A stretch of 63,970 nt of DNA, the filler included, from Craspedostauros australis (taxonomy: Eukaryota), in assembly GCA_030167865.1 (NCBI GenBank). It is 4 parts of 4 records of this genome, joined end to end, with 100 filler letters (N's around TTAATTAATTAA, not from the genome) between each part and the next. Parts side by side here need not be neighbours in the genome. Positions count along the whole stretch, not along the records: positions 1 to 28,813 come from JALAGF010003878.1; 3 more parts are not named here. The stretch is one strand, 5' to 3'. The stretch's first letter is position 1; each line of letters begins with the position of its first letter. The position numbers were made by a program, and so were the translations under genes. The notes beneath the pieces are model-generated. The model did not search any database and was not told where the DNA came from. It saw only the letters and a list, made by a program, of their open reading frames with translations. Of this stretch, positions 1 to 25,150 are shown one piece after another.

Positions 1-251
1 CAGTGCTGCGTGGCCTGTTGAACCATAAACACAGCAAGAAGCAAAACTCAAGAGCGCAATCGCATGCAAGCATCACACGCAGACATACTCGCACACATAC
101 GCGTACATACACTCACACACAAAAGAACAGAAAGCACAGACATCGATAAAGACATCAACCACCAGTTTAGGAAAGCACGCCCATCATTGCACCCACACCG
201 ATCAAGCCAACAAGCCAACAATCTAACAAATCCACAAGCTCCAAAAGTCGA

Positions 252-2036
252 ATGACCATGCGAGGGGATGAAGTCATTTGTCTGAATGTAGGCGGAACGC
301 CGTTCTATTGCAGCCTCTGCACGCTCACGACAGCCAAGGGATCGTATTTTGATGCCCGTTTCTCATCCGGCTTTCACCCTGGAGGGCAGCTTGGCGAGAC
401 CGGTCTCTGCGGTGCAAGCGGCAGCAACGAAGCCGAATGCCAAACATGCCAGAAGCCCAACGCGATCCCGACCTTCTTCATCGATCGCAATCCTCGCTAC
501 TTCCCTTTCATCCTGCAGTTCCTGCGAGATCAGCAAACCGAGCTTCCGAGGGAGCTGCTGCCTTTCACGCCTGGCAAAGCGGAGCTCTGGGATTGCTTGG
601 AGAAGGAGGCCGACTTTTACTGTCTCGCGCACCTTCAGTACATGCTTCGCACCACAAGGCTCATTTGCAGCACCACCGAATTCCCCTTCCGCTCCGACGG
701 CAAAGGGATCTTGCATCATGTCGGCACCAACTTTGGCAAGGAGGAAGCTTACAACAACCCTTTCCACCGCGGATTGGTGCGCGTCTACCGATCCACGGAT
801 CCGGGACAATCCGAGTCACGACATTGGTCGGAGCAGGACCTGATTTCTGGGACGGACAAAGCACGCGCCAACTTCGTTGCATACCGCCCGATGTTCTGCC
901 AGCTCAAGGCCAAGACGAGACGCAAGAGAACGCGAATGCATCCACCATCATCCTCTACTCGTGTATCATCCCAACGAAGACAGAGACGGCGTCGCAACCG
1001 TCGGCGTTCCCGCGCCAATTCGTCGAATCGAAGGAATGATGCCATCGGTCACATCTTTGCCATTCACGACGACGATGTCAATGATCATGATCATGATGCA
1101 GAGGGAGATGACGGCGCTGTAATTATTGATGATATCGATGAAAGCGAGGTGGAAGAGGATGGCAATCATGATGATGATGATGACAATGGCGAACATCAAA
1201 ACCACCATGCTGATAACATCGACCGCGATGCCGACAGCAGCAGTGATGAGAATCACGACAACGACGGCAATGGCTTGATTGAGATTGAGCAAGATCGAAT
1301 CGCGCAAGAACCGGAGAGCGAGGGGTACGAAATCAGCGTTCCGTACACGGCAGACGTCTTCAGCTGCTGCCTTTACGACGGCCGCATCACCGATCAGGGG
1401 ATGAGCCAATTCTACGTCACGCTGGAGCTGCCTGCGGGCATCAAGGTGAGGCCATCGCATTACTCCTTGCGTCACAGCGGCATCAACTGCCCATGTGGCA
1501 TGGAGTCGTGGGACTTCCTCGCAAGCAAGGATGGGATCGCATGGACCCTGCTTCACGAATCCCGCCGATCCTCTCCCATCAACATGGACATCGTGAAGGA
1601 ATCCATCGAGGGCTCGTCGTCTGGATTGGCAGAGCTGCTGGATTCGACGATCGTCAAGGAGGAAGACATGGTGCTGTTCGCGCAGGATCTATTGGAGCGG
1701 ACGAGGCAAACATTTCCAATCGATCCGGCTAATTTTCGCATGAGCGAAACGGCAAAAATGAAGACCCCCACCAGCAATAGCGACGAGAACGAAGTGTCTG
1801 ATGATGACGACACCAGCGCCAGCGATATCGGCACCAGCAGCAAACAGGTGTACCTGCAGTATCGGCACGGTCCAAATGCTGCTGCTGCACCAACAACGGA
1901 AGACACGGACGACGACGGATTCTTTCGCTTCTTCCGGATTTCTTCCATCCCGCGCAGTTCCGTTCCCAGAGATATCGCACCCTGCATGCACGGTTCCGGG
2001 TTGGAACTCTTCGGTCAGATTCGTCAGGATGGCTAA
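252..2036 (+). CDS. BTB/POZ (KCTD-type) protein with C-terminal HECTD1/F5-8-like beta-sandwich domain
   Basis: N-terminal ICLNVGGTPF...FFIDRNPRYFPFILQFLR...EADFYCL is the KCTD-type BTB signature. GILHHVGTNFG...NNP, VRPSHYSLRH, WDFLASKDGIAWTLL, FRFFRI and SGLELFG resemble the HECTD1-like discoidin-type domain. Single 594-aa ORF. Confidence 0.85.
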   Translation: MTMRGDEVICLNVGGTPFYCSLCTLTTAKGSYFDARFSSGFHPGGQLGETGLCGASGSNEAECQTCQKPNAIPTFFIDRNPRYFPFILQFLRDQQTELPRELLPFTPGKAELWDCLEKEADFYCLAHLQYMLRTTRLICSTTEFPFRSDGKGILHHVGTNFGKEEAYNNPFHRGLVRVYRSTDPGQSESRHWSEQDLISGTDKARANFVAYRPMFCQLKAKTRRKRTRMHPPSSSTRVSSQRRQRRRRNRRRSRANSSNRRNDAIGHIFAIHDDDVNDHDHDAEGDDGAVIIDDIDESEVEEDGNHDDDDDNGEHQNHHADNIDRDADSSSDENHDNDGNGLIEIEQDRIAQEPESEGYEISVPYTADVFSCCLYDGRITDQGMSQFYVTLELPAGIKVRPSHYSLRHSGINCPCGMESWDFLASKDGIAWTLLHESRRSSPINMDIVKESIEGSSSGLAELLDSTIVKEEDMVLFAQDLLERTRQTFPIDPANFRMSETAKMKTPTSNSDENEVSDDDDTSASDIGTSSKQVYLQYRHGPNAAAAPTTEDTDDDGFFRFFRISSIPRSSVPRDIAPCMHGSGLELFGQIRQDG

Positions 2037-2647
2037 CAACAGGGACCGCAACCTTTAGAGACCATTCGTGAAGATGCGCAAGCCACAAAGAAAGGGGACA
2101 GACTCGAAAGAGAATGCAAGGAGCGGCAGAGTAAGATCACGATCAGTCGATAGTATTGGTTGGGCTGGGAAAACAAATGCACCATGCGTACTCGGTCATG
2201 CTAATAGTTCGAAGGAGGGAAAGGAACGGGTTTGGGTCGAATTTGAAGCTACCGAGAAAGCTGGCTTGAACAAAAGACTGACAGTATGGTAAACACAGAA
2301 GCAGACGATAGAATCGATGTGCCAATCTGACTTGGTACAAGGCCACCGCTGCACCACAAACGTACGAACGAAGGAGATGAGAGTGTCACGCGACGCCACC
2401 ATGCGAGTATGTAGGTATAATTTTGGGAATTGAAGACTTAGCAACACTTTGGAACATGATGAATTGATACGCGGTGCAGCACTTCCTTCCACTGCACTCT
2501 ACTGCACACGTGCTTGTACCTGCCGTAGCATTGGCATTACTAGACTCGAATGGAACGCACAGCTGTCTGCAGTCGTGGACCATGCAATGTCCACGAAGCA
2601 GATCATGTGCGGCATGTTGCACAAGCTCGATGCATCGTGCTTGGTCG

Positions 2648-5600
2648 TTACCGACCACCATCCTCAATGGCCTCGGTCAACAGTTCCAGCAACCGATCCA
2701 CCCCAATGGCATGCCACATGGATTGCCAAGCATTGTCCAGCGGCGGTGCATCCGCAGGTCGTCGTGCCACGGTGTGCATCTGCTCAGGGCTCGCACCGTA
2801 GGGGTACATCCCCGCCTTCTCCGCACGGGCATGCATCGCCGCCAGTTCGTCTGCAGACATGGTTGGATTGCGCGACATGAAGTTGATGCCCTCAAAGACG
2901 CGCACACCGCCACGTTCCAGGCATTGAAACTGGATGGCCTCCTTGTACTCCCCAGTCTGAGGGTCCTTCTGCGCGTCGACGATGTAGTTGGGGAACTCGA
3001 CGCCGAAGCCGCTTTCTCTTAGAACGCCCGGTGCATCGTTGGGATCCACTCGGCCAAAGAGGAAGTAATGCGCGCCGTTGGCGACGGGACTCTTGTCCCA
3101 GGACAGCTTGGCGGAATCTGGGGCGGGTCCCTTCACAGCGAAATCATCAATCCAACCCTGACGGTCTGGTGTGAGCTTGATATCCAACGTGGTCTCGTAG
3201 ACCTCCTTGAACTGCGTCCAATCATGGAACTTGTGTTCGTACCATAATCCTTGATACTTTTCGAGATCGAAGTTGTCCATGCTGGGTTGACGCACCTCTT
3301 CGTAGGCCGGACATCCCTTGACGACCTTACTCTGGTAGGGATCGTCCAGAGCAAGGTTGAAGTCACCCATGCCTGCGGTGCCATCCAATCCGGCGCCCAC
3401 GTAGGCGAAGAAGGCGAAGAACAACCCCGCATTGACGGCCTTTTGTATCTCCTTGGAAAATGAGAATGCCGCGATAGCGACGACATTGCCCAGGAGGAAG
3501 GTGACGGGCACGAGGTCCGCAATCTTCGGTCCCGGACTGCCGTGCAGAACGTCGGAGATCCACAGGATGGGCTGTAGCAAGGGATGCCCCACGGCGAAGA
3601 AGATCCAGAAATTGAGGGCCGCCCAAAAATCGGCGGGGTCGGGGATGTTCCGTTTCATCTCAAGGACGCTGCCGATGAAGCTGGCGAAGGCTGGAGCGTG
3701 ACTCAACACTGCTGCGCTTCCGATTGCGCTTGTGGCGAGCAGCAGCGCGTTCTCGGGCAACTGGAAGGCGGGTTCGTCGTCTTCCACTGTCTCGCCGACC
3801 GCCACGATCTCCAAGGTCTCGAGCAGGGCATCCGCGTAGGCCTCGTTGACCTCTTCGGATACGATGGGCTCGGCGGGATGGAAAGTGAATTTCAGTTTTC
3901 CATTGAGCGACATGCAGGAGAATCGGTACAGACTTCCCGATCGCGCGTTGGAGGCGGCGTAGTAGATATCCTGGAGGTTGTATCGCCCATGCGTCGTCTC
4001 CAACGACTGCTGCTGGCCATTTCCGTTGCTGGCATTGCTGGTGCTGTCCTCAAAGCCCTCCATGCGTTCGTAGACGCCGGCATTGGTGAACCCAGCGCTG
4101 TAGGCCCGGCCCTGCGAGGACTTGGATTGCGAGGTGAGATGCACGAGGTTGTTGAGATCGGCAATCGTCATGGCGAAGTCAAAAACCCTGACAGCCTGCT
4201 GCGGACCGTTGTCATCCTGCAGGAATTTTTGTGTTTGCTGACGTCCGTCCTTCGCGAGGTCCCAGAACTTCTGCAGCCGCTTTGCTGTGGGAGCTTGTCG
4301 CAAGCTGGCACCCGTGTTGTCGCTGATGGATCCGTGCAGGAGGTCCATGCTGCCGGCGTGACAGCCGAAGGATTTGCCATCGTCCAGCTTCGCGCCGTAT
4401 CGTCGCATGTCAAGGCTTTGGAGGATCTTGTAGGTTCGTTTGTTGCTGCTGTCTTCGCTGTTGCCGACGAAATCGGAGGAGACCAAGGTGGTGGCTGCCG
4501 AGAGCGCGTTGGTGATGCTGACACCGTTGGCACGACATTGCTCCAGCAGCTTGGTGGTGGTCTCTTGCGAAAGGGAACGAAATTGGAGCGTGGAGCGTCT
4601 CTGGTCGGACTTCTCGTCTTCGCCACCTGCTGCGTTGCCGGAGATAGTGGTGAGCGCACCGAGGATGCCGTTGCCACTATTTGTGGTGAAATCGTCGGGC
4701 AGAATGACGGGACCTTGCGCATCCTCGGCTGCCTTGCCGGCAACGTAGGCCAAGGTGCGAGGCGACACCCCGCCGAACTCCACATCGGACCATGTCTGGT
4801 GCTTGCCCAGCACGGACTCCTCCAACGACAGCGGCATGCTCTGCGGTGTGGGTTGAGTGGATCGGATGGAACCTGCGGATTCTATCTCTGCCACGATCTT
4901 CAGAAGCTGATCGATCAGACGATTGGCGCTGGATTGATCCGAGATGGCGTGATTGAAGGAGAAGACCATGGCGCAGGGATCATTTGATTTTCCCGTGGAA
5001 ACGAGCTGCAATCGCCACAAAGGACCGTCGCCAGTGCTGCACCAGCTGCCATCGTCCAGATCCTTTAGAAAGAGGTTCTGCCACTCCTGCTCCAGGTGGT
5101 CGGAATCGGAGATGGTGACCATTTGCAGAACATCGGCAGCATCCAAGTCCGGGTTGTTTACGAACGTGAGAGGATCCGGCTCTCCGTCGCGCACCATCTG
5201 AAAGAGATCGATGCGCTGTCCCGGCTCCCCACTTCCATCCACGCGCGCGGACAGCAGCGGATGGGCCTGCATCACCGCATCGATGGCCTGCTGCAGGACC
5301 TTCCGCGACGGCGTTGCCGACAGCACAGCGCAGCTGATGTGATTCATCGATGGAAACACGGTGTCCGGGTTGACTGCGTACTGCCTTGGCAGCATCAGGA
5401 GTTCCTGCGATCCCAGAACACGAGATTGCAGCCGCTCGTCGTCCGTCGTTGCATCCGTATCGGTAGAGGAAGCAAACAGCGATTGTGCGTGGTTGCCGCG
5501 TTTCGCGTTCGTGCGGCCGTCGCTGGCCACGCTGGTGGGCACAGCAAAGGCTTCCACCATGGGAATGCCGATGCCCGCGCTGGTGGCAACTTGGGTGGCA

Positions 5601-5677
5601 ACATCGATGACAGAAGCAGCGACAGCTGCCAGCAGAACCAGCTGGTGGGCCTTTCCCAGCGACCTCATCTTGTTCAT
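2648..5677 (-). CDS. Plastid-targeted HxxxD acyltransferase (condensation/alcohol-acetyltransferase-like) fused via TM helices to a lipocalin domain
   Basis: First ATG at 5677 (MNKMRS...), hydrophobic signal segment, then VEA-FAVP (ASAFAP-like). MQAHPLLSARV, GPLWRLQLV and FNHAISD (HxxxD) mark the acyltransferase. Hydrophobic helices follow. C-terminal DNFDLEKYQGLWYE is the lipocalin GxWY motif. Confidence 0.8.
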   Translation of the reverse strand: MNKMRSLGKAHQLVLLAAVAASVIDVATQVATSAGIGIPMVEAFAVPTSVASDGRTNAKRGNHAQSLFASSTDTDATTDDERLQSRVLGSQELLMLPRQYAVNPDTVFPSMNHISCAVLSATPSRKVLQQAIDAVMQAHPLLSARVDGSGEPGQRIDLFQMVRDGEPDPLTFVNNPDLDAADVLQMVTISDSDHLEQEWQNLFLKDLDDGSWCSTGDGPLWRLQLVSTGKSNDPCAMVFSFNHAISDQSSANRLIDQLLKIVAEIESAGSIRSTQPTPQSMPLSLEESVLGKHQTWSDVEFGGVSPRTLAYVAGKAAEDAQGPVILPDDFTTNSGNGILGALTTISGNAAGGEDEKSDQRRSTLQFRSLSQETTTKLLEQCRANGVSITNALSAATTLVSSDFVGNSEDSSNKRTYKILQSLDMRRYGAKLDDGKSFGCHAGSMDLLHGSISDNTGASLRQAPTAKRLQKFWDLAKDGRQQTQKFLQDDNGPQQAVRVFDFAMTIADLNNLVHLTSQSKSSQGRAYSAGFTNAGVYERMEGFEDSTSNASNGNGQQQSLETTHGRYNLQDIYYAASNARSGSLYRFSCMSLNGKLKFTFHPAEPIVSEEVNEAYADALLETLEIVAVGETVEDDEPAFQLPENALLLATSAIGSAAVLSHAPAFASFIGSVLEMKRNIPDPADFWAALNFWIFFAVGHPLLQPILWISDVLHGSPGPKIADLVPVTFLLGNVVAIAAFSFSKEIQKAVNAGLFFAFFAYVGAGLDGTAGMGDFNLALDDPYQSKVVKGCPAYEEVRQPSMDNFDLEKYQGLWYEHKFHDWTQFKEVYETTLDIKLTPDRQGWIDDFAVKGPAPDSAKLSWDKSPVANGAHYFLFGRVDPNDAPGVLRESGFGVEFPNYIVDAQKDPQTGEYKEAIQFQCLERGGVRVFEGINFMSRNPTMSADELAAMHARAEKAGMYPYGASPEQMHTVARRPADAPPLDNAWQSMWHAIGVDRLLELLTEAIEDGGR

Positions 5678-6249: not shown

Positions 6250-8589
6250 TCAATCCGTTGCGTCCTCAGCGTAATCGACGAACGCATCGTCACCGTCAAT
6301 GCCATCATCATCGCTGCCGTCACTGGTGGTTCCCTTTTCCAAGGCGCCCATGTAGCTCTCGTTGTTCATGCGCTGGTTGGTTTCGTCCTGCCAAAGCGGT
6401 GGCAAGGAATCGAAGTCATGGATGCAGACAATGTCTTTCTGTCCGTTTGTGATCACGTGGTACGGTGTCACAACCATGTGGCTTGCGGACGGAGATTGGA
6501 AGCGTAGATCCGACACGGAGTAGTACGTTTGGCCGGTGCAACCATTCAAGATGGACATGGATGATGGCGTTGTGGCCAGAACGAAATGTGCATGCGGCAA
6601 GTAGTCCAGCTTCCACACGGCGTCGCCGTTGCTGGTGCTGCTGGACGACGATTGGCCAGTGAAAGCCATTTGCGGATGATCCGTCGGCTGACGGAGGACG
6701 TGGACCTTGCGGTTGGGGAACGTTTGCGATGCGAGCTTTGGCCAGACGTGGTACTCGAGTGTTGGTTTTTGCTCTGTTGCTTCGTCGCTGTCGGTGATGT
6801 CTTCGACGTACATGGTGGTGTCCAGCAAAGATTGTTTCTTGCGCTGCTCCAGCACCTCGAAATGCAAGATGGCTCCATTGGACAGCCCCACGATGACAGC
6901 ATGCGCCGTCTGCACCGTTGTTCGTTCGTCGTTGTCCTTGGTGCACATTGTGCCCTTGCCGGCATGGGTCAACGCGGTGATGCTGATCTGTTCTTGGTGG
7001 TTGGTGGCGGAAAAGGTGAGGGAAGGCGGAGGCAACATGGTGGGCTCTGCCGCGATGTCGTCGCCACACGATGGCAGAATATCCTGTGCGATGTCATAGA
7101 CCAGCACGTGGCCTGTGCTTGTGCCGAAGTACAGAAGGGAGGCTTCCGCGGATGCGCCATCCTCCTGGAGCGCATCTTTCTTGGGGACCGCCATGGAAGT
7201 GATTGTTGGTTGCGTTGGTGTGTACGAGTCGCCGAGGGAGGAGGAAGCTGACGATGCTTCAGCTTCGACGTCCTCCATGGCATTGTCCTCGTCTTCTGGG
7301 AGGACGGATGGAATTTGTCCAAAGGCCACCAGCTCGGTTGTTTCGGCGTCCCAGACCGAGATCATGCCCTTGGAGGAGACGGTGACGAGAACTTGCTGGT
7401 TGGTGGATGGCAGTGTCATGACTTGGAGGTCCACGGCGTCTCGTGCAGAGACCATGGATAGATCGATGGAATTGGCGAGCGTGGGTACCGAGGCGGCTTC
7501 ACCTTCATCGGAGTTGAAGAGATCATCCAGCCTCCATTGCTGGATGAGCGTGTGCGATGCCGTGGCATCCGTCTTGGTGGCATCGGTTGCGGCGGCCGTG
7601 CCTGGCACAGTCACGAACAAGGTCGATTCTTCATCGATCGATGTGCCTTCCTGCACGACGACCATATTCGAAACCGGCGCGCGCTTGCCGGTTGAGAATT
7701 GGGCCATGATCTTGAAGGGCTTGGGGAGGGTTTCGTTCCACTCCCCATCTTCATCGTCGTCGCTCTGTGCCTGTTGGAGGTGAGATGGCTGAGCGCCCTC
7801 GCTGTTGCTGTCGGCCTTGGATTCTTCTCCTGGACGCACGAACGTGCCGTCTCCGCTCTCCATGCATTCCAGGCTGCTGGCCTCACGGTCGAGCTCGTAG
7901 ACGGCTGCCATGCGGGTCTTGTCTGTGGCATCAATCTCATGCGCTGGCTCATCGCCGGGGGCGGCATTCTGGCCATCGCCCTCTCCGTCGTTGGCAACGG
8001 CCTTGAGCTTGAGCTGCTGGGTGAAGCTGGCAAAGAGCTCCGTGCCCATCTGGATGATGCAGATGGATCCGTCGGTGCGACCGACGATGAGGACGTTGTC
8101 GTCCATGCCTGGTTGGCTGAGGGAGGAGACGGAGATCTTCTGGCCGCCGTCGGTTGGGCCGTGCGGATCCAGCGAGAAGCCACGCACCTGGCAGTTGCCG
8201 TCCTTCCAGTTCTGCTGCTCCTGGTCTGACACCTGCTGCATTCGCTCGCGCAGGACCGTGGAGAAGGACTGGGAGAAGTAGTCCACCACGGGGAACAGCG
8301 GGCTGTCGTCTTGGCCCGTGCCTTCAGTATTGCGACTGCTGCTGCTGCTGCTGTCATGCTCGTCGTCCTTGTTCGTGTAGAAAAGACGGGAGCCCGAAGA
8401 TCGCGTTGCGGTCGTTCCCTGTTTCCGATGCTGGGCCTGATGCTGGGCCTGATGCTGAGCCTGCTGGCTGACAGGAGCATGCTCACGATGCAGAGCAACA
8501 ACAGCGTTGGATGGAAAGACAGCAAAGCCATCTGCCGAATTCATCCACAGAAGGGATGCGGCGGGGACGATCGCGGTGGCCAACCTCAT
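6250..8589 (-). CDS. Putative plastid-targeted WD40/beta-propeller-like protein
   Basis: ATG at 8589, MRLATAIVPAASLLWMNSADG-FAVF is a signal peptide plus Phe motif. Propeller-like blades: LIVGRTDGSICII, LVTVSSKGMISVWD, LYFGTSTGHVLVYD, VITNGQKDIVCIHDF. Confidence 0.65.
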   Translation of the reverse strand: MRLATAIVPAASLLWMNSADGFAVFPSNAVVALHREHAPVSQQAQHQAQHQAQHRKQGTTATRSSGSRLFYTNKDDEHDSSSSSSRNTEGTGQDDSPLFPVVDYFSQSFSTVLRERMQQVSDQEQQNWKDGNCQVRGFSLDPHGPTDGGQKISVSSLSQPGMDDNVLIVGRTDGSICIIQMGTELFASFTQQLKLKAVANDGEGDGQNAAPGDEPAHEIDATDKTRMAAVYELDREASSLECMESGDGTFVRPGEESKADSNSEGAQPSHLQQAQSDDDEDGEWNETLPKPFKIMAQFSTGKRAPVSNMVVVQEGTSIDEESTLFVTVPGTAAATDATKTDATASHTLIQQWRLDDLFNSDEGEAASVPTLANSIDLSMVSARDAVDLQVMTLPSTNQQVLVTVSSKGMISVWDAETTELVAFGQIPSVLPEDEDNAMEDVEAEASSASSSLGDSYTPTQPTITSMAVPKKDALQEDGASAEASLLYFGTSTGHVLVYDIAQDILPSCGDDIAAEPTMLPPPSLTFSATNHQEQISITALTHAGKGTMCTKDNDERTTVQTAHAVIVGLSNGAILHFEVLEQRKKQSLLDTTMYVEDITDSDEATEQKPTLEYHVWPKLASQTFPNRKVHVLRQPTDHPQMAFTGQSSSSSTSNGDAVWKLDYLPHAHFVLATTPSSMSILNGCTGQTYYSVSDLRFQSPSASHMVVTPYHVITNGQKDIVCIHDFDSLPPLWQDETNQRMNNESYMGALEKGTTSDGSDDDGIDGDDAFVDYAEDATD

Positions 8590-9767: not shown

Positions 9768-10303
9768 TCAAGCCTCAGCAGGGCCTTGTCGTTGTTGTGG
9801 CGTCGGTAAGCGACGTCGCCTGCGCTGTCGATCGTTCTGTTGCTCCGAGGCGCCAGCATTGGTCTCCGACATGTGACGCTCCCATTGTCGTGCTCCCCCG
9901 TAGAATCGATTTTCTCGCTGTCGGAACGTGCCCAGAGCATGGCCAAAGTTGATCCCGTTCCCGCCAGCAGCGCCACTGTTGGTATTGTCGTTGCTGCTGC
10001 TACTGCTGCTGCTGGAGGTATCGTCATTATGTTCGCCATCAGCTGCCGAGCTCGTCTCTGGAACAGGGGCCGGATCCGTCGCCCCGAACAACGTTGGGCC
10101 AACCACGACTATCGACGAAGTTTTCATCGTTGCTGCCTTGGTGTTGTACTGACGGTTGCCTTTCCCCTTCATGTTCTTTCCCGCGCTTATGTGTTCACCG
10201 CTCTTGGTTTTCGGTAATTTACCGCCTTTGCCTTTGCCCTTGCCCTTGCCGCTCTGACTCTCGTCGCTGTCGCTGTCATTGATACTGGCATTGTCATCAT
10301 TGT

Positions 10304-10334
<31 letters not shown>

Positions 10335-13300
10335 CTTGCTTTTCTTGCCGTCATATTTGCTTTTAGGCTTGCTCTTTGCTCTGCTCTTGCTGCTTTTGCT
10401 GGAACTGGGACTCATTCCCATCATCTCTACCGGAGGCGGTGTGGCGTTGGGTGCCAAGGTCGAGAATTCTGGGAACAGAAACGACGGAAATATTGGTCCC
10501 TTCATGGCCTCTGTCGTTGGCGCCGTCGATGGTGCCGTACTCGGGACATCCGAGGGACGCATGGACGGAGCAATGCTGGGGACTTGCGATGGTCGGTCAG
10601 ATGGTTGATCGGTTGGCGATTGCGTTGGCTGGTGGGAAGGCATGGCACTGGGCTGCGTGCTTGGTGACTCCGAAGGTTGGTTGGTGGGTCCCGAGGTGGG
10701 CGAAATGGTGGGCGAGGCGCTGGGAACCACGGATGGTGGATCACTGGGAGACGTACTCGGCTGGTCCGATGGACGATGGGATGGTTGGTTTGTTGGGAAT
10801 GCGGACGGGGATGCCGATGGCAGGTCTGTTGGTGCCACCGACGGAACATGGCTTGGTTGATTAGTCGGTGTGCTCGATGGTTCTGCCGATGGTTGTTGCG
10901 AGGGCACGATCGATGGAACTCCAGATGGATTCTCGGATAAAGGCGCAGTCGGAACGACAGAAGGCGATACGCTTGGCATCACCGATGGCTGATCGCTTGG
11001 TGTTGTGCTCGGTGCTGGCGAGCCAAGGCCCTGCACATCAAAGCACATCACCGAATTCTCAACTTCCACGAAGTTGTTTATTACGATGTTCGTCACCGTG
11101 ATCAATCCAAGGGCATATCCATCTGTGTTGGGGTAGGTCGCAGTATTCGCAACAGTTTCGCCGTTACCCGGTCCGATCTCATGCTCTGGTAGATAGTAGA
11201 AATCGTTGTTGTGCCCACCATTCAATGCTTGTTCCAATTCATACAATCCGTCGCGTTGCATTAACGCGACAGGGTAATGCCTTCCATTCCCAGGCCAGTC
11301 TATTCGATGGATGTGCGAGACATACCATGGTGCCATCGTACAATGTTATTGTTGAGCATTGCGCGGTGGGCAGTTGAACCCGAATCGACCAGGTCGGTGC
11401 ATCAAGACGGTGGATTCAAGATTAATGCAGCAGCGCGGGTCGGTGAGCATTGATGTGTCTTTGGCTGATGCCATCAGCGGTTTTGCTGCATATTGGTACG
11501 GCCGCTCATGAGCAACAGCAAGGTTCTGATCGCAGGAGTACATCACATCCACACGTACCTGTCTGGAACGGTCCACCGCGAGGGCTGTTTCCATCGCCCG
11601 CAAAGTTGAAATTGTTCTCATCGATGTGATAGATCAGCATGCCACCTGGGTTTGGGGGAAGTTGTGCGTTGCGGTTACAAGAGGAGCAGCAGTAGCAGTT
11701 GCAGTTGCGGTCGAAGGTGGTGCGATGTGAGTTTTAATGCCGTGGACGGCAGGCAAAATGAGTACCAAGTGATAGTTTGTGAGCGAAGAAGACCAACTGG
11801 TCGATGGGTAACGGAACCTGGGGAAGCCACAGCTTGCACAACTGTGAAGTACTTGTCGCTGGATTACACCCACGTTGCCATTGGACGGTATGGCAAAATG
11901 CGCCGGTCTTCATCGGCGATGTACATTTGAGCACGATTGATTCCATCAACAATGTTTGGCATTGTGCGTACCTGGCTCAAAGAAGAATTCGTCAAAGTCT
12001 CCAGGAATCGGCTGCCGATTCTCCAGCAAGAAATACTCGAAGTCGAACAAATCGGGGTGGTCGATGCGGTAGATCACATCTTCCAATTCAACAGGAGGGG
12101 CTTTGTACGTGCCATCCTCCGTGATTCGGATAGGATCTACCCAGCCAAGCTCAACTTTTGACCATGCGGAGAGGTGGCCTGGTCTGGATTTACGATCGCC
12201 TGGTCCGGCCGGGTTGGCCTGTTGGGATGGTGACGAACGAATTACAGGGGCAAGACGCAAAGGCGAAAGGCCGAAACAAGTTAGAGAAGGAGTGGAAGCG
12301 AAATGAAATTGTGAGCCGATGCGGTGTTTGCGTACAGAATTGCTGTTGGCGCTCATGATGGATCATTTGCTGTCACAAGAGACTACCTGCCACAACATGC
12401 ATGCTGCACACAGCACACTGCATACGGATGTTGCCGCATGTGTTGGTTGCAAGACATCACTGGTTCTCACGAGCTTACCATTAAGCCGTATCTATCAATG
12501 CCGCCAATGTTTCCAAACAGGTTGAGCGGACCTTCTATGTCGTACAAATCTGGCAATCCAAAGGAATGGAAGATTTCGTGTGTGATGGTGCCCAAGCGAG
12601 CGATGTTGGACTCGCAGGTTTGCCGAAAGGCTGAGCCGACCGCAATACTGCCGATTTGGTACCCTTCGCTAGATCTCCAAGGCAAACTGTTTTGTGCGAA
12701 TGTCTGGAATGAGCTGATTCTGCGGTTGGGCAAGGCGCCGCTGTAGCAGTCGAACCCCCCTTCTTCGGCAGCATATCCAGAGTGAAGGACAACGATCGCG
12801 TCGATAACAAGGTCGCCGTTCTGATCGTAGGCTCCAAAGTCGATCCCGTCACCGTCCAGGCGGTCCAGGATGGGAATGAACGAATTTGCGAACTGCGTAC
12901 TGGCGCCGATCGTGGCATATACATCTTCATCGTCTTCCGCCACCTGCCATGGAACAATGTCAGCCTCAAATTGCGTCTTCCCGTACGAGTTGACATCGAA
13001 AAATCGGCTGATGGAGCCCGTCGGGTAAAGATCCGAGTCAACATCTTCCGCATTGAAGATTTTGTCGTAGTCACCTGGCGGCTGCAAAACTCTGGCATCG
13101 CCGACGTGGTTTGGCCATTGCATCAACAGCACGAGGACACGCAATCGCCCCATCGCGGTCAGCTGCATTCGTCGATGCCCTTGTCTTTCGCCTTTTCCAT
13201 CTGCCGTTTCCAACTTTCTGCGCTCTTCACTTTCCGCAACTACCTTGGATCCATACATTCGTTCCGATGCAGGGACGTCCCAGCCTTGCTTTCTGTTGTT

Positions 13301-13933
13301 GTTACTACGGGGATGATCTGACTGAAGCTCGCGTTCTGTAGTTGATGGCTCAAGCTTGTGCGGCGATATCATTTGACGGAGATCCATTGCGTGCTTCTTG
13401 GCATTTTCTTCGAGATCCACACAGTCCTCAAGTGAGATATACCAGCACAGCTTCGATGACATCCATCGCGGGTGATACGTATACTCCTGTCCAAACCTCA
13501 GTCTCCTCGAGGAATGCCGATCTATTCTTCCGTTGACATCGGTGGTGTTATGTGCGAAGGTCTGGAGCAACGGGTTGTTGCGGGGCGTGATTGGTGCGGT
13601 GATTCCATCGAGCATGTGACGCTCAAAGGAGGCATTGATGGTTGGCGTATTCATTGATGCTTGTTTGTTATGTTGCTTGCTGTGTTCATGAGATGCACTT
13701 GTCTCAGCTTCATGACTCCCTGAGCTACTTGTATCCACCTCGCCACCCATTGCCAGTCTGTCATCGTGGTGGCCGACAAAGCCCTGGAGAGGGGTGTGTT
13801 GGTCATGGTTGGTCGATCCGTCCGTCCCAATACTAGAACTCCCAGCAGGCGTTTCTTGCGCGTTGCATGGACAACATGACACCGCGCTCGCAATGAGCAG
13901 TATCAACACCATGCAGCCTGCACTGCACCGCAT
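9768..13933 (-). CDS. Secreted M6 (immune inhibitor A-like) zinc metalloprotease with P/S/T-rich repeats and Lys-rich tail; exons 13933-12479, 12218-11972, 11645-11559, 11299-9768
   Basis: Signal peptide MRCSAGCMVLILLIASAVSCC. Motifs DQNGDLVIDAIVVLHSGYAAEEGG, HEIFHSFGLPDLYD (HExxH), LSAWSKVELGW, EYFLLENRQ, GMLIYHIDE, HYPVALMQRDG. Three GT-AG introns join these segments in frame (GLM|ANP, EPG|GML, QTD|WPG). Confidence 0.85.
10500..11030 (-). repeat. Coding low-complexity PSxxPS/PTxQPS repeats (mucin-like)
   Basis: Translation PSDQPSVMPSVSPS...PTNQPSHVPS...PSTAPT in the last exon of the M6 gene. Confidence 0.85.
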
Positions 13934-15481
13934 TCGCTGTCGTCTGTTCGTAGAGTGAGATACCGCTTGACGACCATCCCGCTCGTTTGCCCCTTGGTGG
14001 CCTCGCAGCCTGCCGTCAGATCCCATCTGCCAGTGCTGCTCGTGATGTTCATGACGATGGTGCCCGATATCAAATTCGAGAGGATTGTCCATCGTTCTTT
14101 GTTGCTTGGTTGCTACCATTGACAACGGTGCATTGCAGGTCGTCCTGCTTGTCCTGCTCATTTGGCTCTGCCTCCCCAGTAGTTTCAATGCCTTCTTTCC
14201 ACGCTGTGAAGCCTTCACCGTCGCCACCGGAGTCATCGTCGCCGTTGCTTCCTCGGCTGCTTGCGGTGTCAACGTTGTCGTCTTTATCGTTGTGGTCCTC
14301 ATCGTTGCAATCAACCACGCAACCAGTGTCAATCTCCACTCAGCTCAGCAGTCCAACAGTAGTACATGCGGAGAAGGAGGCAAAGTAGGATCAATGGATT
14401 TGCTCTGCTCTGCAGTGCAGTGCATGTGCCTGGATCGATGACACCTGCATGCACGCTGAAAATCAATGTCAGGATCGCCATGAATGAACGCGCACACCTC
14501 TGCCTCCGAAACGCTCGTGCTCACGCCCAAACAACCATCAGGGAGCACCAACCAGCGAAACAAATTCCCATTTGAAGCGTTGTAGATGCTCACACTCCTT
14601 TGTTGACACCGCTGCCGTCGGTTGATGATCACAAAACCCTCTCGACGGTGCCGCTCGCCGACGAAATTTTCGTTTTTGAGGTTGCTTCGCGCACCGTGTT
14701 TCTGTTCGCTCCGCGGTGATCATGACGAATTTGTGAGTTGCATTTTGACACAAACAGCGGATTGATCTATTCGACTGGTCGTATCCAATCGCGGACATGT
14801 TGATCGCGAACGCATGGTGATGTCAGAACCTGTCCAACATGTTCGGTCATGTTCGATTGTGTTCTTTTCATTGCTTCTGGTCACTCCTTGTCTCAGTCGT
14901 GTCCGAGGTGCTCACTATTTCAAACGTGCACAGCTCCCTCAGCGAACACGTTCGAGCACATCCACAAAACGATGCCGAACAAGGCACAGCAGAAGGGAAC
15001 AACGTGACTTTCTGCCTCTCTTGGTCGCCCCTTGTCTTTCATTCGACGCATGTCTCGATGCAGCCCGCTGGAACTGGGGGATGTCTTGCACTGGTGTACG
15101 AGTATTATGAGCATCATCATTTCTCTTCATGGCAACAGAAGCATGTCTGTCAGAGCGGCGCGGCCTTCAAGTCCCCGTCGGCCTGGCAGGACTGCACACT
15201 CTGCCTCGATGAGCCACGACTGTGAGCAAACCCCCTAGCCCGTAGGTTGTCCCCCCGGCGCCGCGGTCCACATGGATACTGTCCTTCTCGACAAGACTGA
15301 ACGATACATCGCCCTCTGTCACCCTCCGACACTCATCTTTTTGCTGTTCCTGTTCTATTTTCTTTTTGCGCCTGTACCTGCATCTGTACCTGCAGCGCCT
15401 GCGTCATGCCGTTCATTGGATACAAGTTGACTACGGGCGCAAGTTGGGTAGAGTAGAGTGGAGCGGAGCAGAGTACTTGTG

Positions 15482-15805: not shown

Positions 15806-17503
15806 TCATTTCCTCAACATATTCCGCAAGCACATCGCAGCACGTTGCCTCGCCACGCTGTCGGAGACTTCTTCCCACCAATCTCCCGAGCCATCATGCT
15901 TCAGAAAGCGCACGCCGGACTCGCGCAGTTGCTCCACCAGATCCCTTGTCATCCTCGTCTTTTCCACTTTGGTGGTGGAGGGGTGGTTGTACGATTCTTT
16001 TGACTTTTCCAAAATCGCGGAGAAGTCCAGGTTGCCAGGGAACTTCTGGTAAGGACGGCCGCGGCCGAGCAGGACATCCGTGGATCGCGGCGGTGTATCG
16101 ATGCAGTGCTCCGGCTTGCCTTCGTAGAACTTGTCCAAGGCGTCTTGATCACGCTGAAAGCACTTTTGGAGGGTGTCATGGGCAATGTCCGGGTCGTAGG
16201 CGGTCACTTCTCCAGCCGGCAACAGGCTGGCAGGTATGCCGTAAGTCATGAGCTCGGTGTTGCATTCCTGCGGCGGTCCACAGTGCAGCTTGCATCGGAG
16301 CCGGAAGTCCTTTGGCATGAGCTGGAACAAGGCTGAGAGGAGCGGCTTGAGGAGGGGATTGGAAAAGCAGATGTGCAACGCACCCGCACGCATCGGCATC
16401 GCGTCGAGAGTGTTGAACTTGCTGAACGCCAGGGCTCTCTGAAAGTGGGACATGCTTGCGCCGTTCGTGTAGATGACAGCCACCATGCCATACTGCTGGA
16501 CCCGCACGGACCGGCTGAAGATATGCGACGTGTAAAAGCTGGACTGTCCCTGAGACAGGACGTACTGCGTCTTCCACCGGGCCGAGTACTGCACTACGGT
16601 CGGGCGTATTGTGAGGCCATCGCGATCGTCATGGAATGCAATGGATCCGGATTTGATGGATTCCTGCGCGTCCGGTTCCAGATCGGAGAAGACGATCGGA
16701 CGCAGGCACCTTTCCTTCCCGAACAGCTTCTGCTTCATGAGGATGTACTTCATCATCTTGATCGCGGCCTCCTGGGCATCCCACCGCGTCGCTCTGAGCA
16801 TCGCAAGACGCAGATCGACGTCGGACGTGATGCGCGGTGCCAGAAATGATGTCATGGTGTACGCCTCCTTCATCGCCCTGTCGTCAATCGAAAATTGGTG
16901 CTTGCGTTTGCTGTCGTACAGACCAACCGTCAATTCATGGTCCAACCGTTGCAGATGCCGCTGTCGGAATGCGTCCGTCTCCTCCACCGGACGCCGGACT
17001 CCGTGTATGTCTTCGTACACATCCGATCTTTCCTCCAGAGACAGTTCCGTGATCTCCCGCGCTTGCAGCCTCTCGGCTTCTTCCATACCTTTGTCCAGCT
17101 GTCGGGTTGCCGCTGTCTCCACTGAATGCATGCCGTTATCGTGACCATCACACGTTGTCATATCGTCCTTTTCATTTCCATCCAACGACCGTTTGTTGTT
17201 GCGTTGCTCCTCGGGGGCTTGCGCATTCGCATACGCCTGCGAGAGCTCAGCTACTGGTTGTGGCAGAGCCGCATCGTGTTGCTGCCGCAGAGCGTCATCG
17301 ATCCCATACTGGCTGTTGGTGTCCAGCAGCTTGTCAGCTTCTTCCGCCTGGAGCTGGGACCAGTGGCCATCACGACCAGCAAAGCCACCAGCATCAGCCT
17401 CATCCAAGTCAAACGTAACCTCCTCCGGAGACATCAGGCTGGATAGTTTCGTTTCCGTTCGCTGAGCGTTTCCCGTTGCTGGAATGTAGTGAAGGCCATA
17501 CAT
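15806..17503 (-). CDS. CRAL-TRIO/Sec14-like plus DUF6824 domain protein, copy 1
   Basis: ERSDVYEDIHG, LRLAMLRATRWD...K-LFG and PMRAGALHIC...LMTYGIP. C-terminal DVLLGRG...PGN...RFLK...WEEVSD..AR...LRN matches DUF6824. Confidence 0.85.
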   Translation of the reverse strand: MYGLHYIPATGNAQRTETKLSSLMSPEEVTFDLDEADAGGFAGRDGHWSQLQAEEADKLLDTNSQYGIDDALRQQHDAALPQPVAELSQAYANAQAPEEQRNNKRSLDGNEKDDMTTCDGHDNGMHSVETAATRQLDKGMEEAERLQAREITELSLEERSDVYEDIHGVRRPVEETDAFRQRHLQRLDHELTVGLYDSKRKHQFSIDDRAMKEAYTMTSFLAPRITSDVDLRLAMLRATRWDAQEAAIKMMKYILMKQKLFGKERCLRPIVFSDLEPDAQESIKSGSIAFHDDRDGLTIRPTVVQYSARWKTQYVLSQGQSSFYTSHIFSRSVRVQQYGMVAVIYTNGASMSHFQRALAFSKFNTLDAMPMRAGALHICFSNPLLKPLLSALFQLMPKDFRLRCKLHCGPPQECNTELMTYGIPASLLPAGEVTAYDPDIAHDTLQKCFQRDQDALDKFYEGKPEHCIDTPPRSTDVLLGRGRPYQKFPGNLDFSAILEKSKESYNHPSTTKVEKTRMTRDLVEQLRESGVRFLKHDGSGDWWEEVSDSVARQRAAMCLRNMLRK

Positions 17504-19234: not shown

Positions 19235-20938
19235 TCACTTCCTCGACATGTTCCGCAAACTCATCGAAACACGCTCCCTGGCCGCAGCGTCCGACACTTC
19301 CTCCCACCAATCTCCGGAATCGTCGCGCTTCAGAAACCGGACGCCCGAATCGCGCAGATCCTGCACCAACTGCTTCCTGAGCTGCGTCCTCTCCGTCCGG
19401 GTGTTCGACGGGTCGTTGTATGCTGGTTTGCACTCCTGCAGCAGGCGAGCGAACTCCACGTTCCCTGGATACTTCTGATACGGACGACCGCGTCCCAGCA
19501 AGATGTCCTTCGGTTGCGGCGGTACCTCGACGCATTCTTTTGGCTTGCCCTGGTAGAACTTGTTCAGCACGTTGTGATCGCGCTGCAAACACTTTGCCAT
19601 CGTTTCTTGTGCGACGGATCTGTCGCACGCAATGATATCTTCGCCGGGCAGCATCCTTGAAGGAATCCCATACGTCATCAATTCATCGTTGCATTCCTGC
19701 GCGGAGCCAAAGTGCAGCTTCCACTGCAGCAGGAATGTCTTGGGCATCGCTTGCGCAATGGCCGACAAGATCGGCTTGAAACGAGAATGAGAAACGCATA
19801 TGTGCACCCCGGCCGGGCGTATCGGCATCGCATCAAGCGCATTGAACCTTATCATCGCTAACGCTTTTCTGAAGTGGGCCATTTCGGTACCGAGCGTGTA
19901 GATGACGCAGACCACGCCGTTCTGCTGGGCACGGATCGTGCGGGAGAAGATGTGCGTCATGTAAAACATCGCCTGCGCCAGAGATTGGGACGTGCGGAGC
20001 CTCCAGCGTGCTGTAACGTCGGTGAACATGGGTCTCGCGCTGAAGCCTTCTTCATCGTGAGTACACAGCGACCCATTGTTGATCGATTCTTGCGCATCCT
20101 CCTGCAGATCGGAAAAGACGATCGGCCGCAGGCAGACCTCCCTCCCAAACAGCCGCTCCTTCATGTGAAAGTACTTCATGATCTTGATGGCCGCATCCTG
20201 CACATCCCACTGCGACACTCTCAGCATCGCCAGTCGCAGGTCCACGTCCGAGGTGATACGCGGCGCCAAGAACGACGTCATGACGTAGGTTGCCTTGATG
20301 GCCCTGTTCTTCGCGGAGAGCTCGTACTTGCACTTGCTGTCGTACAGACCCACCGTCAGCTCCATCTCCAGCCGCTGCAAGTGCTCCTGTCGAAAGTCTT
20401 CCGTCTCCTGGACCGGGCGTCGTACTCCGTGAATGTCTTCGTACAAATCCTCTCTCTCCCGCAGCGACAAGGCGGAAATCTCGCGCGCCTGTTGCCGTTC
20501 CGCGTCCAGCAATTCTGTGTCAGGTTGGCCGGACGATGATGGCTTCGAATCATCATCTATGCTCGTATCATCAAGGCGCGATGACGATGCGCTGCTTCCA
20601 TCCAGGGTGCGCTTCTTGTTGTTCTGTCTTTGTGATGGTTTTGACGAGTTGTCTGTCGCGACGCTTGCGGATGACTGCTGCTGCTCTTGATACTGCTCTT
20701 GATGCTGCTCTTGGTGCTCCTGTTGATGCACGTGCTGATGTTCGCCTGTATGTTCTGTGTCGAGCTTCTCATTGAGGAAGTCGAGATCATCGATCGCGCA
20801 TGCTTGATCGACGTCGCCATCATCCTGAAGGGATTGGGAACGGCCATCTTTGCGATGACCGACACTGTCATCGAGTGAAGTTGCTTGTGGGTTATGTTCG
20901 AGGCTCCGGAGGTCCGGAGGCTTCGTATCAATAGTCAT
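19235..20938 (-). CDS. CRAL-TRIO/Sec14-like plus DUF6824 domain protein, copy 2
   Basis: Colinear paralog of 15806-17503: EDIHGVRRPV, LRLAMLR, DILLGRGRPYQKYPGN, RFLKRDDSGDWWEEVSD. Confidence 0.85.
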   Translation of the reverse strand: MTIDTKPPDLRSLEHNPQATSLDDSVGHRKDGRSQSLQDDGDVDQACAIDDLDFLNEKLDTEHTGEHQHVHQQEHQEQHQEQYQEQQQSSASVATDNSSKPSQRQNNKKRTLDGSSASSSRLDDTSIDDDSKPSSSGQPDTELLDAERQQAREISALSLREREDLYEDIHGVRRPVQETEDFRQEHLQRLEMELTVGLYDSKCKYELSAKNRAIKATYVMTSFLAPRITSDVDLRLAMLRVSQWDVQDAAIKIMKYFHMKERLFGREVCLRPIVFSDLQEDAQESINNGSLCTHDEEGFSARPMFTDVTARWRLRTSQSLAQAMFYMTHIFSRTIRAQQNGVVCVIYTLGTEMAHFRKALAMIRFNALDAMPIRPAGVHICVSHSRFKPILSAIAQAMPKTFLLQWKLHFGSAQECNDELMTYGIPSRMLPGEDIIACDRSVAQETMAKCLQRDHNVLNKFYQGKPKECVEVPPQPKDILLGRGRPYQKYPGNVEFARLLQECKPAYNDPSNTRTERTQLRKQLVQDLRDSGVRFLKRDDSGDWWEEVSDAAARERVSMSLRNMSRK

Positions 20939-22071: not shown

Positions 22072-23112
22072 TCACTTCCTCGACATGTTCCGCAGGCTCA
22101 TAGCCACGCGCCGCTTCGCCGTGTGATCCGATACTTCCTCCCACCAATCCCCAGAATCGTCGCGCTTCAAGAACCGCGTACCGGAAGCGCGTATCTGCTT
22201 CACCATCTCTTGGATCAGATCTGTCTTGTCCGCCCTCGTCTTGGTCGGGTCGTTGTAAGATGCCTTCCTACGTTGCAGCAATGCAGAAAATTGCATGTTG
22301 CCGCTGAATCTCTGGTACGGACGGCCACGACCAAACAGGACATCCTTCTCCCTTGGGCATGAACCGATGCAATGCTCAGGTTTGCCTTCATAGAAGGTAT
22401 TCTTGGCATCTCTATCGCGTTGCAGACACCTCTCCACCAGTTCATGACCGAGGGCAGCGCCGCAGTCGGCCATGTCCCCAACCGGCAAGATGCCCGCCGG
22501 AATCCCGTAAGTCACCAATTCATCGCGGCATTGCTGCGGCGACCCGCAATGCAGCTTGGATCGAAGCCGGCACTCTCTTGGCATGGCTTGGAAGATCGCT
22601 GCTACGATTGGCTTGAAGAGTGGGTTGGAAAAGCAGATGTGCAACCCAGCTGTGCGAACAGGCCTCGCATCCATCGCATCGTATTTCATCATTGCCAGCG
22701 CTCTCTGGAAATGGGATACGTTCGTGCCAATCGTGTAGACGACGGCAACCATTCCACGTTGTTGAACCTCTCTGGATCTGCTGAATATGTGCGACATGTA
22801 GAAACTCGCTTGCACCTGAGATAGGGCGCTCTGCGTCTTCCACCGAGCCACGGACAGGACCATCATCGGGCGCGCTGCGAAACCGTTGCAGTTGTCATGA
22901 AAGACGACTGCGCCAGATCTGATGGAGTCTTGCGCATCCTGCTGCAGATCGGAGAACAGGATCGGCCGCAGGCATCGTTCCTTCCCAAACAGCTTCTCTT
23001 TCATGCGAACGTACTTCAGCATTTTCATGGCGGCCTTTTGCGCATCCCAATGTGTCGATCTCAGCATCGCAAGGCGCAGATGAGTATCGGACGTAATGCG
23101 CGCCAACAAGAA
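22072..23112 (-). pseudogene. CRAL-TRIO-like/DUF6824 copy 3, 5' part missing at the retrotransposon junction
   Basis: Similarity to copies 1 and 2 begins at FLLARITSDTHLRLAMLR (equivalent to FLAPRITSDVDLRLAMLR). Upstream of about 23113 the sequence is LINE ORF1 antisense. Confidence 0.8.
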
Positions 23113-25150
23113 ACGAGGAGAAGTGAGCCCAACAAAGGGCGACAATCTCATACAACCACTCAAAAGAGCCAATGCAGCAGCAGACACGGACAAGGAGCAA
23201 GCGCAAGCAAACACAGAGGCAACAGCAACAGCACATCCGCCAACAGAAACACCAAGTGTGGACAACGAGTTCATCTATAGCGACCAGGATCATATGTCCA
23301 TCAACGCAGATGAACAAACGCAGGCAGGAAGTAACACTTTCACCAACGAATGGAACGAGGTTAACAGGAACAGAGACGCCAACCAACAACAAACGGCTAC
23401 CAAGACCAACGACATCAAATACTGCGACGTGCACATCATGGTGAACGGAGGAGGTGACGCGAAGGACGCCAAAGTCGCCATCGACGCGGCCATCGGGTCA
23501 TGCAGAGATTTCCTTGTTAACATCCAGCACGTGGACGCAACAGCAAGATTGAAACCATGGAACCTAACAGTGGCCCAAACCAACGTCCACTCACTCGACG
23601 ATTTTCCTAAGGACCTGACCACTCTGAAAGAATATTTCAAAGGGGTGAGAGCCATCTACGGGAAAGAGCGAGAGAAGATGTTCCTGAAGGTGAGGATCGA
23701 ATGCGAGAACCCAATCACAAGGATCACAGAGGAGCTAAGAGACTTCTTCTCAAGAGACAGCGGAAGGTTCACCGTGGCAAAGATTCAAGCCGCATCAACC
23801 ACCACCATCGGATGGATGATGTACTCAACCAGACAGCTCAGCGAAGACGAGCTGGAGGCGGAGCTCACTCGACTAACACAACGACAGGTGGCAGCGAACT
23901 GGAAACGCATCTCTGACGGGGCAAAGTACGACCCCAACCGGAAAATGGAGAGAGACCCGAGGGCACTACACATTGAGACCGCTACAGCCGACAAGGAAGT
24001 GGTGATGAAAGTGATGGAGACGTACTATGGTGCGAAATCGACGAAATTTCCACTGGGAATCAGGATGAGGTTGGTAACACCACTCTCAGGCATTGTGAAC
24101 ACAGACATGCGGCAAGGGTGGTTTGCGCTAAGAGAGCGCCACGCCGGCTGGTGCGAAGAGGCAAAATCTATCACATCACACGACATCATCCAAGAGACTC
24201 TGGACACGGTGCCAGACGGAACAGGCAACACACTACGCCAGATGATCATGAAGCTCAAATCCACCACGGGGAACGTGAACACCCCACTGTTCGCATCAGT
24301 GAGCAAGCAGTGGAGAGGGGCAGGGTACGTGTTTCAATTTCATCCACACAAAGAGATGGAAGCACGCATGACGGTGAAAGGGCTGCTGGTGACACTAGAG
24401 GCGAAATACGGCGAGACAGTGAGGTCACTATTCACAACACTTGCGCGAGGCGAAGCAAAGACGATGAAGTGGGACGAAGCAACCAAGCGGGTGATTTCAG
24501 AGCGAGATGAAGCAGTGGAAGCTGTGATGGCTGCCGACGAAGACATGCACTTCGCACGAAAGGTGGAGGTCGACATGGAGGAGGGAGTAGCACAAGAAAG
24601 CAGAGACTGCGACGTGAGACCAGAAAAGGACTACGGGGACAACGAGACCATCCCGTCGCTGCGAAACCACCAAGCATGGAAAACCATCAGCGCGAGAGGC
24701 GAAGCCAACAGGCAGGCAGCAAGAGACAAAGAACTTCAAGGCGAAGGATCCACCACGTCCACACTCACAAACAATAGCAAACGGACAACAGGCACGCAGA
24801 GACAGAAGATCGCACACTTGGAGGAACAACTGGCGGAGTTGATGGAGAACAGAACACAGAAATCAACTATGTCAACGCTATCGGGAAGCACAAAGAAGAC
24901 ATCAGGGACGACGAGAGCACTAGTAGTAGAGATGAAAGCACAGATGGAAGCAATGCAAGCACGGTTGGAGGCAACGGCAGAGGAAAATCGGAAGCTCAAA
25001 GAAAAAGAGGGGGAGAGCACGGAAGGGCGAGGCATAACGCCAAAGGACGCCCAGCGCGAGAGAACCAGCGAAGGAAAGGTTGACAGCCCACTTCCAGGTC
25101 GCACACCAAATGTAACGGATGGCGCTACGGCGGCATCCGGAGACGGTTAA
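23096..25150 (+). CDS. LINE ORF1 protein (684-aa ORF; true start uncertain)
   Basis: Precedes and overlaps ORF2. Contains IGWMMYS, RALHIET, KFPLGIRMRLV and a C-terminal coiled-coil-like segment. Confidence 0.75.
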   Translation: MRANKKRGEVSPTKGDNLIQPLKRANAAADTDKEQAQANTEATATAHPPTETPSVDNEFIYSDQDHMSINADEQTQAGSNTFTNEWNEVNRNRDANQQQTATKTNDIKYCDVHIMVNGGGDAKDAKVAIDAAIGSCRDFLVNIQHVDATARLKPWNLTVAQTNVHSLDDFPKDLTTLKEYFKGVRAIYGKEREKMFLKVRIECENPITRITEELRDFFSRDSGRFTVAKIQAASTTTIGWMMYSTRQLSEDELEAELTRLTQRQVAANWKRISDGAKYDPNRKMERDPRALHIETATADKEVVMKVMETYYGAKSTKFPLGIRMRLVTPLSGIVNTDMRQGWFALRERHAGWCEEAKSITSHDIIQETLDTVPDGTGNTLRQMIMKLKSTTGNVNTPLFASVSKQWRGAGYVFQFHPHKEMEARMTVKGLLVTLEAKYGETVRSLFTTLARGEAKTMKWDEATKRVISERDEAVEAVMAADEDMHFARKVEVDMEEGVAQESRDCDVRPEKDYGDNETIPSLRNHQAWKTISARGEANRQAARDKELQGEGSTTSTLTNNSKRTTGTQRQKIAHLEEQLAELMENRTQKSTMSTLSGSTKKTSGTTRALVVEMKAQMEAMQARLEATAEENRKLKEKEGESTEGRGITPKDAQRERTSEGKVDSPLPGRTPNVTDGATAASGDG

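Follow-up and report, generated by a model that had tools for sequence, protein, structure and literature searches.

The closest described system is PtXACT of Phaeodactylum tricornutum (Phatr3_J36932, UniProt B5Y425), which was reported in April 2026 as a xanthophyll acetyltransferase essential for fucoxanthin (PMC13080032, PNAS). According to this report, fucoxanthin was absent from the xact knockout and fucoxanthinol built up, and the recombinant enzyme, with acetyl-CoA as its only acetyl donor, acted in vitro on allenoxanthin, phaneroxanthinol and fucoxanthinol and did not acetylate all-trans-neoxanthin, violaxanthin or diadinoxanthin. L153 was required for activity. The 1020-aa protein, cloned as cDNA, has an acetyltransferase domain (domain 1) followed by a lipocalin-containing part (domain 2); domain 1 alone complemented the mutant and was active in vitro. 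Acetylation activity was established for five XACT orthologs, plastid targeting was predicted for the orthologs, and some diatoms have a second, lipocalin-less XACT paralog with 34-38% identity (PMC13080032).

A probable XACT gene in Craspedostauros australis

We analysed a stretch of C. australis DNA of 63,970 nucleotides (hereafter, the window). ORF translation gave a reading frame open over 1009 codons, from 5677 to 2648 on the minus strand, in agreement with the single uninterrupted ORF of the preliminary description. Plus-strand frame 1 contains stops across 2648-5677. The features of the locus are as follows.

2648..5677, minus strand: XACT ortholog ORF (probable), complete at 1009 aa and readable without an intron; from residue 51 it runs colinear with PtXACT down to the C-terminus that both share
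5429..5677, minus strand: presequence, probable bipartite plastid-targeting (residues 1-83), from sequence and hydropathy
3794..5428, minus strand: domain 1, AATase/condensation-fold acetyltransferase (residues 84-628), from identity to PtXACT domain 1, fold matches and weak Pfam matches
5252..5263, minus strand: HPLL motif, L142 aligned to the essential L153 of PtXACT
4937..4951, minus strand: catalytic HxxxD motif, H243-A-I-S-D247 (residues 243-247), aligned to NHAISD of PtXACT
3323..3757, minus strand: domain 2a (residues 641-785), a helical hydrophobic segment with 3-4 probable membrane helices and with H698 and H712 as conserved positions
2651..3322, minus strand: domain 2b, eight-stranded lipocalin barrel and C-terminal helices (residues 786-1009), from the predicted structure
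3236-3250, minus strand: GLWYE (residues 810-814), within the barrel
252-2036: BTB/POZ gene, convergent to XACT
6250-8589: probable beta-propeller gene

The protein was aligned with a 1020-aa sequence, P0149, at 617 identical columns of 969 (64%), colinear to the last residue. We take P0149 to be a form of PtXACT because it clusters with B5Y425 and its HPLLH at 150-154 fits the L153/H154 numbering of PMC13080032. The identity was 57% for domain 1 (P0149 residues 94-631, E 0.0), where PMC13080032 defines XACTs by homology to PtXACT domain 1 at E < 1e-20, and 78% for domain 2, with its C-terminal lipocalin of the diatom type. A homolog search that scored 8000 candidates returned 242 matches. Among the 120 listed, P0010 (Psemu1|297863) and P0043 (CAMPEP_0185733512) are XACT orthologs in Dataset S3 of PMC13080032 and P0041 (Fracy 183807) is a redundant model there; P0004 and P0041 are present in the UniProt table of the same paper. 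A quickly built tree, confined to the lipocalin region, placed P0001 together with PtXACT and the diatom orthologs named above in a clade with an SH-aLRT value of 100; this tree carried long-branch warnings, and the probable Euglena sequence was left out of it. Domain 1 found one match in the C. australis genome itself, and the sequence had no exact copy in the protein collection searched. With 57% identity in domain 1 and a full architecture, the gene is unlikely to be the lipocalin-less paralog.

Based on these comparisons, the C. australis gene very probably (about 0.95) encodes a xanthophyll acetyltransferase orthologous to PtXACT, and it is thus a new ortholog of an enzyme family already published (PMC13080032, April 2026). 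The two proteins share architecture, length (1009 versus 1020 aa), the HPLL and NHAISD motifs and the C-terminus, and differ at H154 of PtXACT, which corresponds to S143 in C. australis and to R in 54 of 66 relatives. The preliminary description knew of no characterised protein with such an architecture, a statement that PtXACT overturns; its guess of a plastid O-acylation of a xanthophyll, linked to fucoxanthin, describes what is established for this 64%-identical protein (PMC13080032).

The presequence has a hydrophobic core at residues 13-31 by hydropathy, and the homology of most full-length relatives begins at about residue 84. VEA-FAVP was located at residues 41-47 (VEA-FAV at window positions 5540-5557), as were the other two motifs noted earlier, HAISD at 243-247 and GLWYE at 810-814. 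Cleavage at VEA/F would leave a 43-aa signal peptide, which is unusually long and late, with both the hydrophobic core and the VEA-FAV motif seen. We infer a nucleus-encoded plastid enzyme, with probable import.

The flanking genes in the window gave no sign of a pathway gene cluster around XACT. A second contig holds a 92-95% copy of window positions 1-2940 joined to unrelated DNA; of XACT, this copy contains just the final codons, and it has an in-frame gap of 57 bases. The contigs of run X1, from which the assembly may itself derive and which is then not independent of it, skip these 57 bases as well, and a loose end of theirs at 2937 fits the junction of the second contig by eye. No RNA run was listed as carrying the sequence. 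A sequencing run whose type was guessed contained 13% of the words, with contigs covering 7 of 30 bins, and was uninformative on expression or a single transcript.

The acetyltransferase domain

H243 and D247 were invariant in all 66 aligned fused relatives, and the L142 position was L in 65 of 66. The aligned NHAISD of PtXACT is labelled HXXXD in the Fig. S3 text of PMC13080032. In a model of residues 83-1009 (pLDDT 81), the N-terminal domain had a condensation/acetyltransferase fold, and its best Foldseek match was AzeD (E 5e-19), followed by TRI3 O-acetyltransferase (E 6e-17). The fold and the conserved motif together support the earlier reading as an HxxxD CoA-dependent acyltransferase region. 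Single-sequence Pfam matches were all below cut-off (AATase E 9e-4, PapA_C, Condensation, WS_DGAT_cat, and Lipocalin_2 E 0.15), and a single-sequence PDB search gave nothing useful. A profile search against PDB sequences gave a weak PapA5-type match, with lipocalins sub-threshold and VDE not matched.

The XACTs of haptophytes, brown algae, eustigmatophytes and dinoflagellates have a homologous HxxxD domain (~24-31% identity to PtXACT domain 1), whereas most are without domain 2 and their substrate ranges differ (PMC13080032). The AATase, PapA5, TRI3 and NRPS condensation-fold acyltransferases have the fold and HxxxD in common with domain 1 at 10-16% identity, but differ in their acceptors.

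In HxxxD acyltransferases, the His acts as the general base, and the fold family suggests this role for H243. After plastid import, domain 1 would bind acetyl-CoA and an allenic xanthophyll and acetylate the 3-hydroxyl on the allenic end ring of the latter. The routes through allenoxanthin, phaneroxanthinol and fucoxanthinol all end in fucoxanthin in P. tricornutum and, by orthology, would do so here. The helical segment is a probable anchor in the thylakoid membrane, the site of the pigments, and the lipocalin barrel would bind a hydrophobic ligand, likely being unneeded for acetylation as in P. tricornutum. The coupling of ligand capture to acylation, as first envisaged, is not required, since domain 1 of PtXACT alone suffices (PMC13080032).

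The helical segment and the lipocalin barrel

A separate model of residues 639-1009 (pLDDT 91, pTM 0.88) consisted of a helical N-terminal part and an eight-stranded barrel, in line with the C-terminal lipocalin that had been read from GLWYE. The VIA Z score of the barrel was 14.8 to ApoD and 13.5 to the lipocalin domain of VDE (3cqn; rmsd 3.1 over 161 residues), the latter tied with or below non-enzymic lipocalins, and the best fold matches were ligand-binding lipocalins (ApoD, crustacyanin, Blc, TIL). Atlas leads for the barrel were at 0.79-0.84, while an Atlas search with the hydrophobic segment gave no usable match. Pfam VDE was absent from all 49 members scanned at E 0.1. Domain 2 resembles VDE/VDL, chloroplastic lipocalin and ApoD/Blc in the eight-stranded lipocalin barrel with a GxWY motif, but at 12-19% identity, and with the added hydrophobic helical segment it forms a family of its own. 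Invariant residues of the barrel include C789, H818, D819, E888, E913, C919 and E929.

In domain 2a, H698 was conserved in 49 of 49 members and H712 in 48 of 49. Outside the signal region, a single segment of this sequence (722-740) passes 1.5 in hydropathy, so the several TM helices of the preliminary description are not all evident here; the family-averaged hydropathy has peaks of 1.3-1.9 at 641-659, ~690-711, 722-740 and 746-764, which lie on predicted helices, and three to four membrane helices are thus likely. The main text of PMC13080032 mentions membranes 0 times, and its Dataset S1 gives a 'Transmembrane' prediction for the gene.

Conservation and distribution of domain 2

In each of the 95 relatives covering both domains, which were drawn from 273 proteins and include several near-identical P. 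tricornutum variants, the identity to the query was higher for domain 2 than for domain 1. Their mean identity to the query was 76% for domain 2 (83% for the barrel and 65% for the helical segment) and 53% for domain 1. Of the 224 aligned columns of the barrel, 98 are invariant; for domain 1 the figure is 65 of 545 columns.

At least 75% of the barrel was covered in 263 of 463 proteins. These comprised 106 fused and 53 partial proteins, 39 stand-alone proteins with a hydrophobic N-terminus (22 clusters at 90% identity), 35 with domain 2 only and an unclear N-terminus, and 18 with the barrel only; 12 had domain 1 and the barrel without the helical segment. The rule for 'stand-alone' is crude, and gene-calling fragments may be among these proteins, but at the start of many there is a clear signal peptide, an AF-type motif and a transit peptide. 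An organism name was attached to 1 of 10 clusters looked up. The stand-alone proteins may be of haptophyte origin, given their grouping, at modest support, with a partial domain-2 sequence of Prymnesium parvum (P0255). Domain 2 is fused to the acetyltransferase in Diacronema lutheri. P0251, whose label EG_transcript_5513 we take to denote Euglena gracilis, is 53% identical, with domain 1 unmatched.

In the UniProt table of PMC13080032, a 418-aa match from Emiliania (53%) and a 369-aa match from Seminavis (45%) are probably also stand-alone domain 2. The portions of its tables covered give no XACT match in the Eutreptiella rows, just one 606-aa match at 28% for Tribonema minus, and no entry for cryptophytes. 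The XACT of the dinoflagellate Breviolum has a divergent lipocalin, ~33% identical and without the helical segment, which groups with separate free lipocalins, several of them preceded by twin-arginine-like motifs.

VDL enzymes have a lipocalin fold. They are used in other steps of the fucoxanthin/diadinoxanthin pathway (PMC9499517). Heterokonts, haptophytes, dinoflagellates and euglenophytes contain diadinoxanthin, which is given as absent from eustigmatophytes (PMC11857680) and brown algae (PMC9499517). The enzyme for neoxanthin dehydration is named as unidentified, up to late 2025, in the passages covered of PMC11857680, PMC9499517 and PMC13078158. Our literature search, for which subscription papers lay mostly out of range, found no described function of the lipocalin half and no diadinoxanthin-forming enzyme.

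Alternative readings of the gene and of its second half

A lipid acyltransferase (wax ester/DAG type), or else a diverged paralog with no part in acetylating pigments, was suggested by the weak WS_DGAT_cat and PapA_C matches and by one relative automatically named diacylglycerol O-acyltransferase. All such matches fall below cut-off, however (13.8 bits against 23.6 for WS_DGAT_cat), and the strict acetyl-CoA specificity of PtXACT and its action on allenic xanthophylls (PMC13080032), together with the 64% end-to-end identity, rule this reading out but for a very slight chance. Slighter still is the chance that two neighbouring genes were read as one, by coincidence or misassembly. Domain 2 is known as a stand-alone protein and XACT is known without the lipocalin, and the truncated second copy of the 3' end on another contig would fit such an error, but the 1009 codons are free of stops, the same fusion is present in 106 of 463 proteins, including the transcript-derived complete ORFs P0012, P0024 and P0046, and PtXACT was obtained at 1020 aa as cDNA (PMC13080032), all of which speak against the two-gene reading. 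We therefore retain a single XACT gene, and the question shifts to what its second half does. At somewhat less than an even chance, domain 2 acts without catalysis, as a carrier or sensor; its ligand at the thylakoid membrane would be a xanthophyll, a lipid or a tetrapyrrole, and it would either hand this on or tune XACT in vivo. The ligand-binding lipocalins among the best fold matches are consistent with this, as are the shifts in Km and Vmax upon removal of the lipocalin from PtXACT and the regulatory ligand that the authors proposed for it (PMC13080032). However, stand-alone versions occur where XACT lacks domain 2 or an XACT match is absent (Eutreptiella), pointing to a job independent of XACT, and ~80% identity across diatoms seems high for a passive carrier.

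Alternatively, domain 2 could be an independent membrane-anchored xanthophyll enzyme, the most attractive candidate being the dehydratase that converts neoxanthin to diadinoxanthin, with acid-base chemistry in the barrel like that of VDE/VDL. We consider this unlikely, at far from even odds; it concerns the second half alone and is compatible with the identity as XACT. Such an enzyme would be fused in diatoms, pelagophytes and Pavlovales and, with the same low probability, free-standing in other haptophytes and Euglena. It would account for the better conservation of domain 2 in 95 of 95 full-length relatives, the invariant His, Asp, Glu and Tyr residues, and the stand-alone forms that carry a presequence of their own (39 of 463 proteins, besides P0255 and P0251); the named carriers of domain 2 are diadinoxanthin algae, and the neoxanthin-to-diadinoxanthin step is the one still without an assigned enzyme in the three sources above. 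The published mutant S32 has a +1 bp allele and an in-frame -3 bp allele at residues 153-154 (PMC13080032). The latter lies upstream of domain 2 and should still yield it intact, so that the mutant could not expose a role of domain 2, and whether the lipocalin is dispensable was tested for acetylation only. On the other hand, no product is reported in PMC13080032 for full-length PtXACT with all-trans-neoxanthin or diadinoxanthin. Xanthophytes make diadinoxanthin, yet Tribonema minus has only its short, 28% match, and the cryptophytes, with the acetylenic alloxanthin, are without an entry in the tables. In addition, the dinoflagellate XACT lipocalin belongs to a different subfamily, and VDE resembles the barrel no more closely than non-catalytic lipocalins do. 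The probability that remains beyond the carrier or sensor and the dehydratase lies on other functions.

Implications

As an ortholog, the XACT of C. australis does no more than enlarge a family whose characterisation dates from April 2026. The step from neoxanthin to diadinoxanthin is a gap in both the fucoxanthin route and the diadinoxanthin photoprotection cycle, and for the enzyme of this step the unexplained XACT half offers a concrete candidate, testable in P. tricornutum. If the unlikely dehydratase reading holds true, domain 2 would be the missing enzyme that forms the carotenoid triple bond.

Gene neighborhood of XACT

The genes and elements around the xanthophyll acetyltransferase gene (XACT; 2648..5677, - strand) in the window are as follows.

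252-2036, +: BTB/POZ-domain gene (Pfam BTB_2, E 5e-9), convergent with XACT
6250-8589, -: 779-aa ORF with a signal peptide, an ADG-FAV motif and weak beta-propeller matches
9768-14302, -: probable M6 metallopeptidase gene, in pieces, with a PT-repeat tail
15806-17503 and 19235-20938, -: two DUF6824 genes in tandem (565 and 567 aa)
23096-28865, +: pair of overlapping ORFs; endonuclease and reverse-transcriptase domains in the second

The 779-aa ORF adjoins XACT directly upstream, and its product is a probable plastid protein. The pieces of the M6 metallopeptidase gene are likely split by introns. The overlapping ORF pair is a LINE-like retrotransposon, which extends into an assembly gap.

Sequence comparison revealed a shortened second copy of window positions 1-2940 on another contig (L003:1502-3234; G000 contig C5606). 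All that this copy contains of XACT is the gene's 3' end, in which there is an in-frame gap of 57 bases. The copy takes in the downstream BTB gene as well and abuts unrelated DNA; either a rearranged allele or a partial duplication could account for it.

Lipocalin relatives of XACT

Five free lipocalins (P0347, P0355, P0371, P0382, and P0416) form a distinct family with 28-35% identity to the XACT barrel, and several of them are preceded by twin-arginine-like motifs. The lipocalin of the dinoflagellate XACT groups with this family. A Pfam search with P0371 returned no match.

In Dataset S4 of the paper characterising PtXACT (PMC13080032), the row "Thalassiosira pseudonana 1" holds a sequence of 908 residues, whereas the listed length of B8BUF6 is 1029 aa. 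The start of this sequence resembles that of P0427, a 908-aa protein of Breviolum minutum; the cell was probably misplaced.

Seven proteins with only domain 2, i.e., the hydrophobic helical segment and lipocalin barrel (P0171, P0172, P0174, P0244, P0268, P0270, and P0280), were placed within the diatom clade. Five of the seven have their own presequence, and a subgroup is faster-evolving (46-53% identity). These domain-2-only proteins suggest repeated fission or duplication in diatoms.
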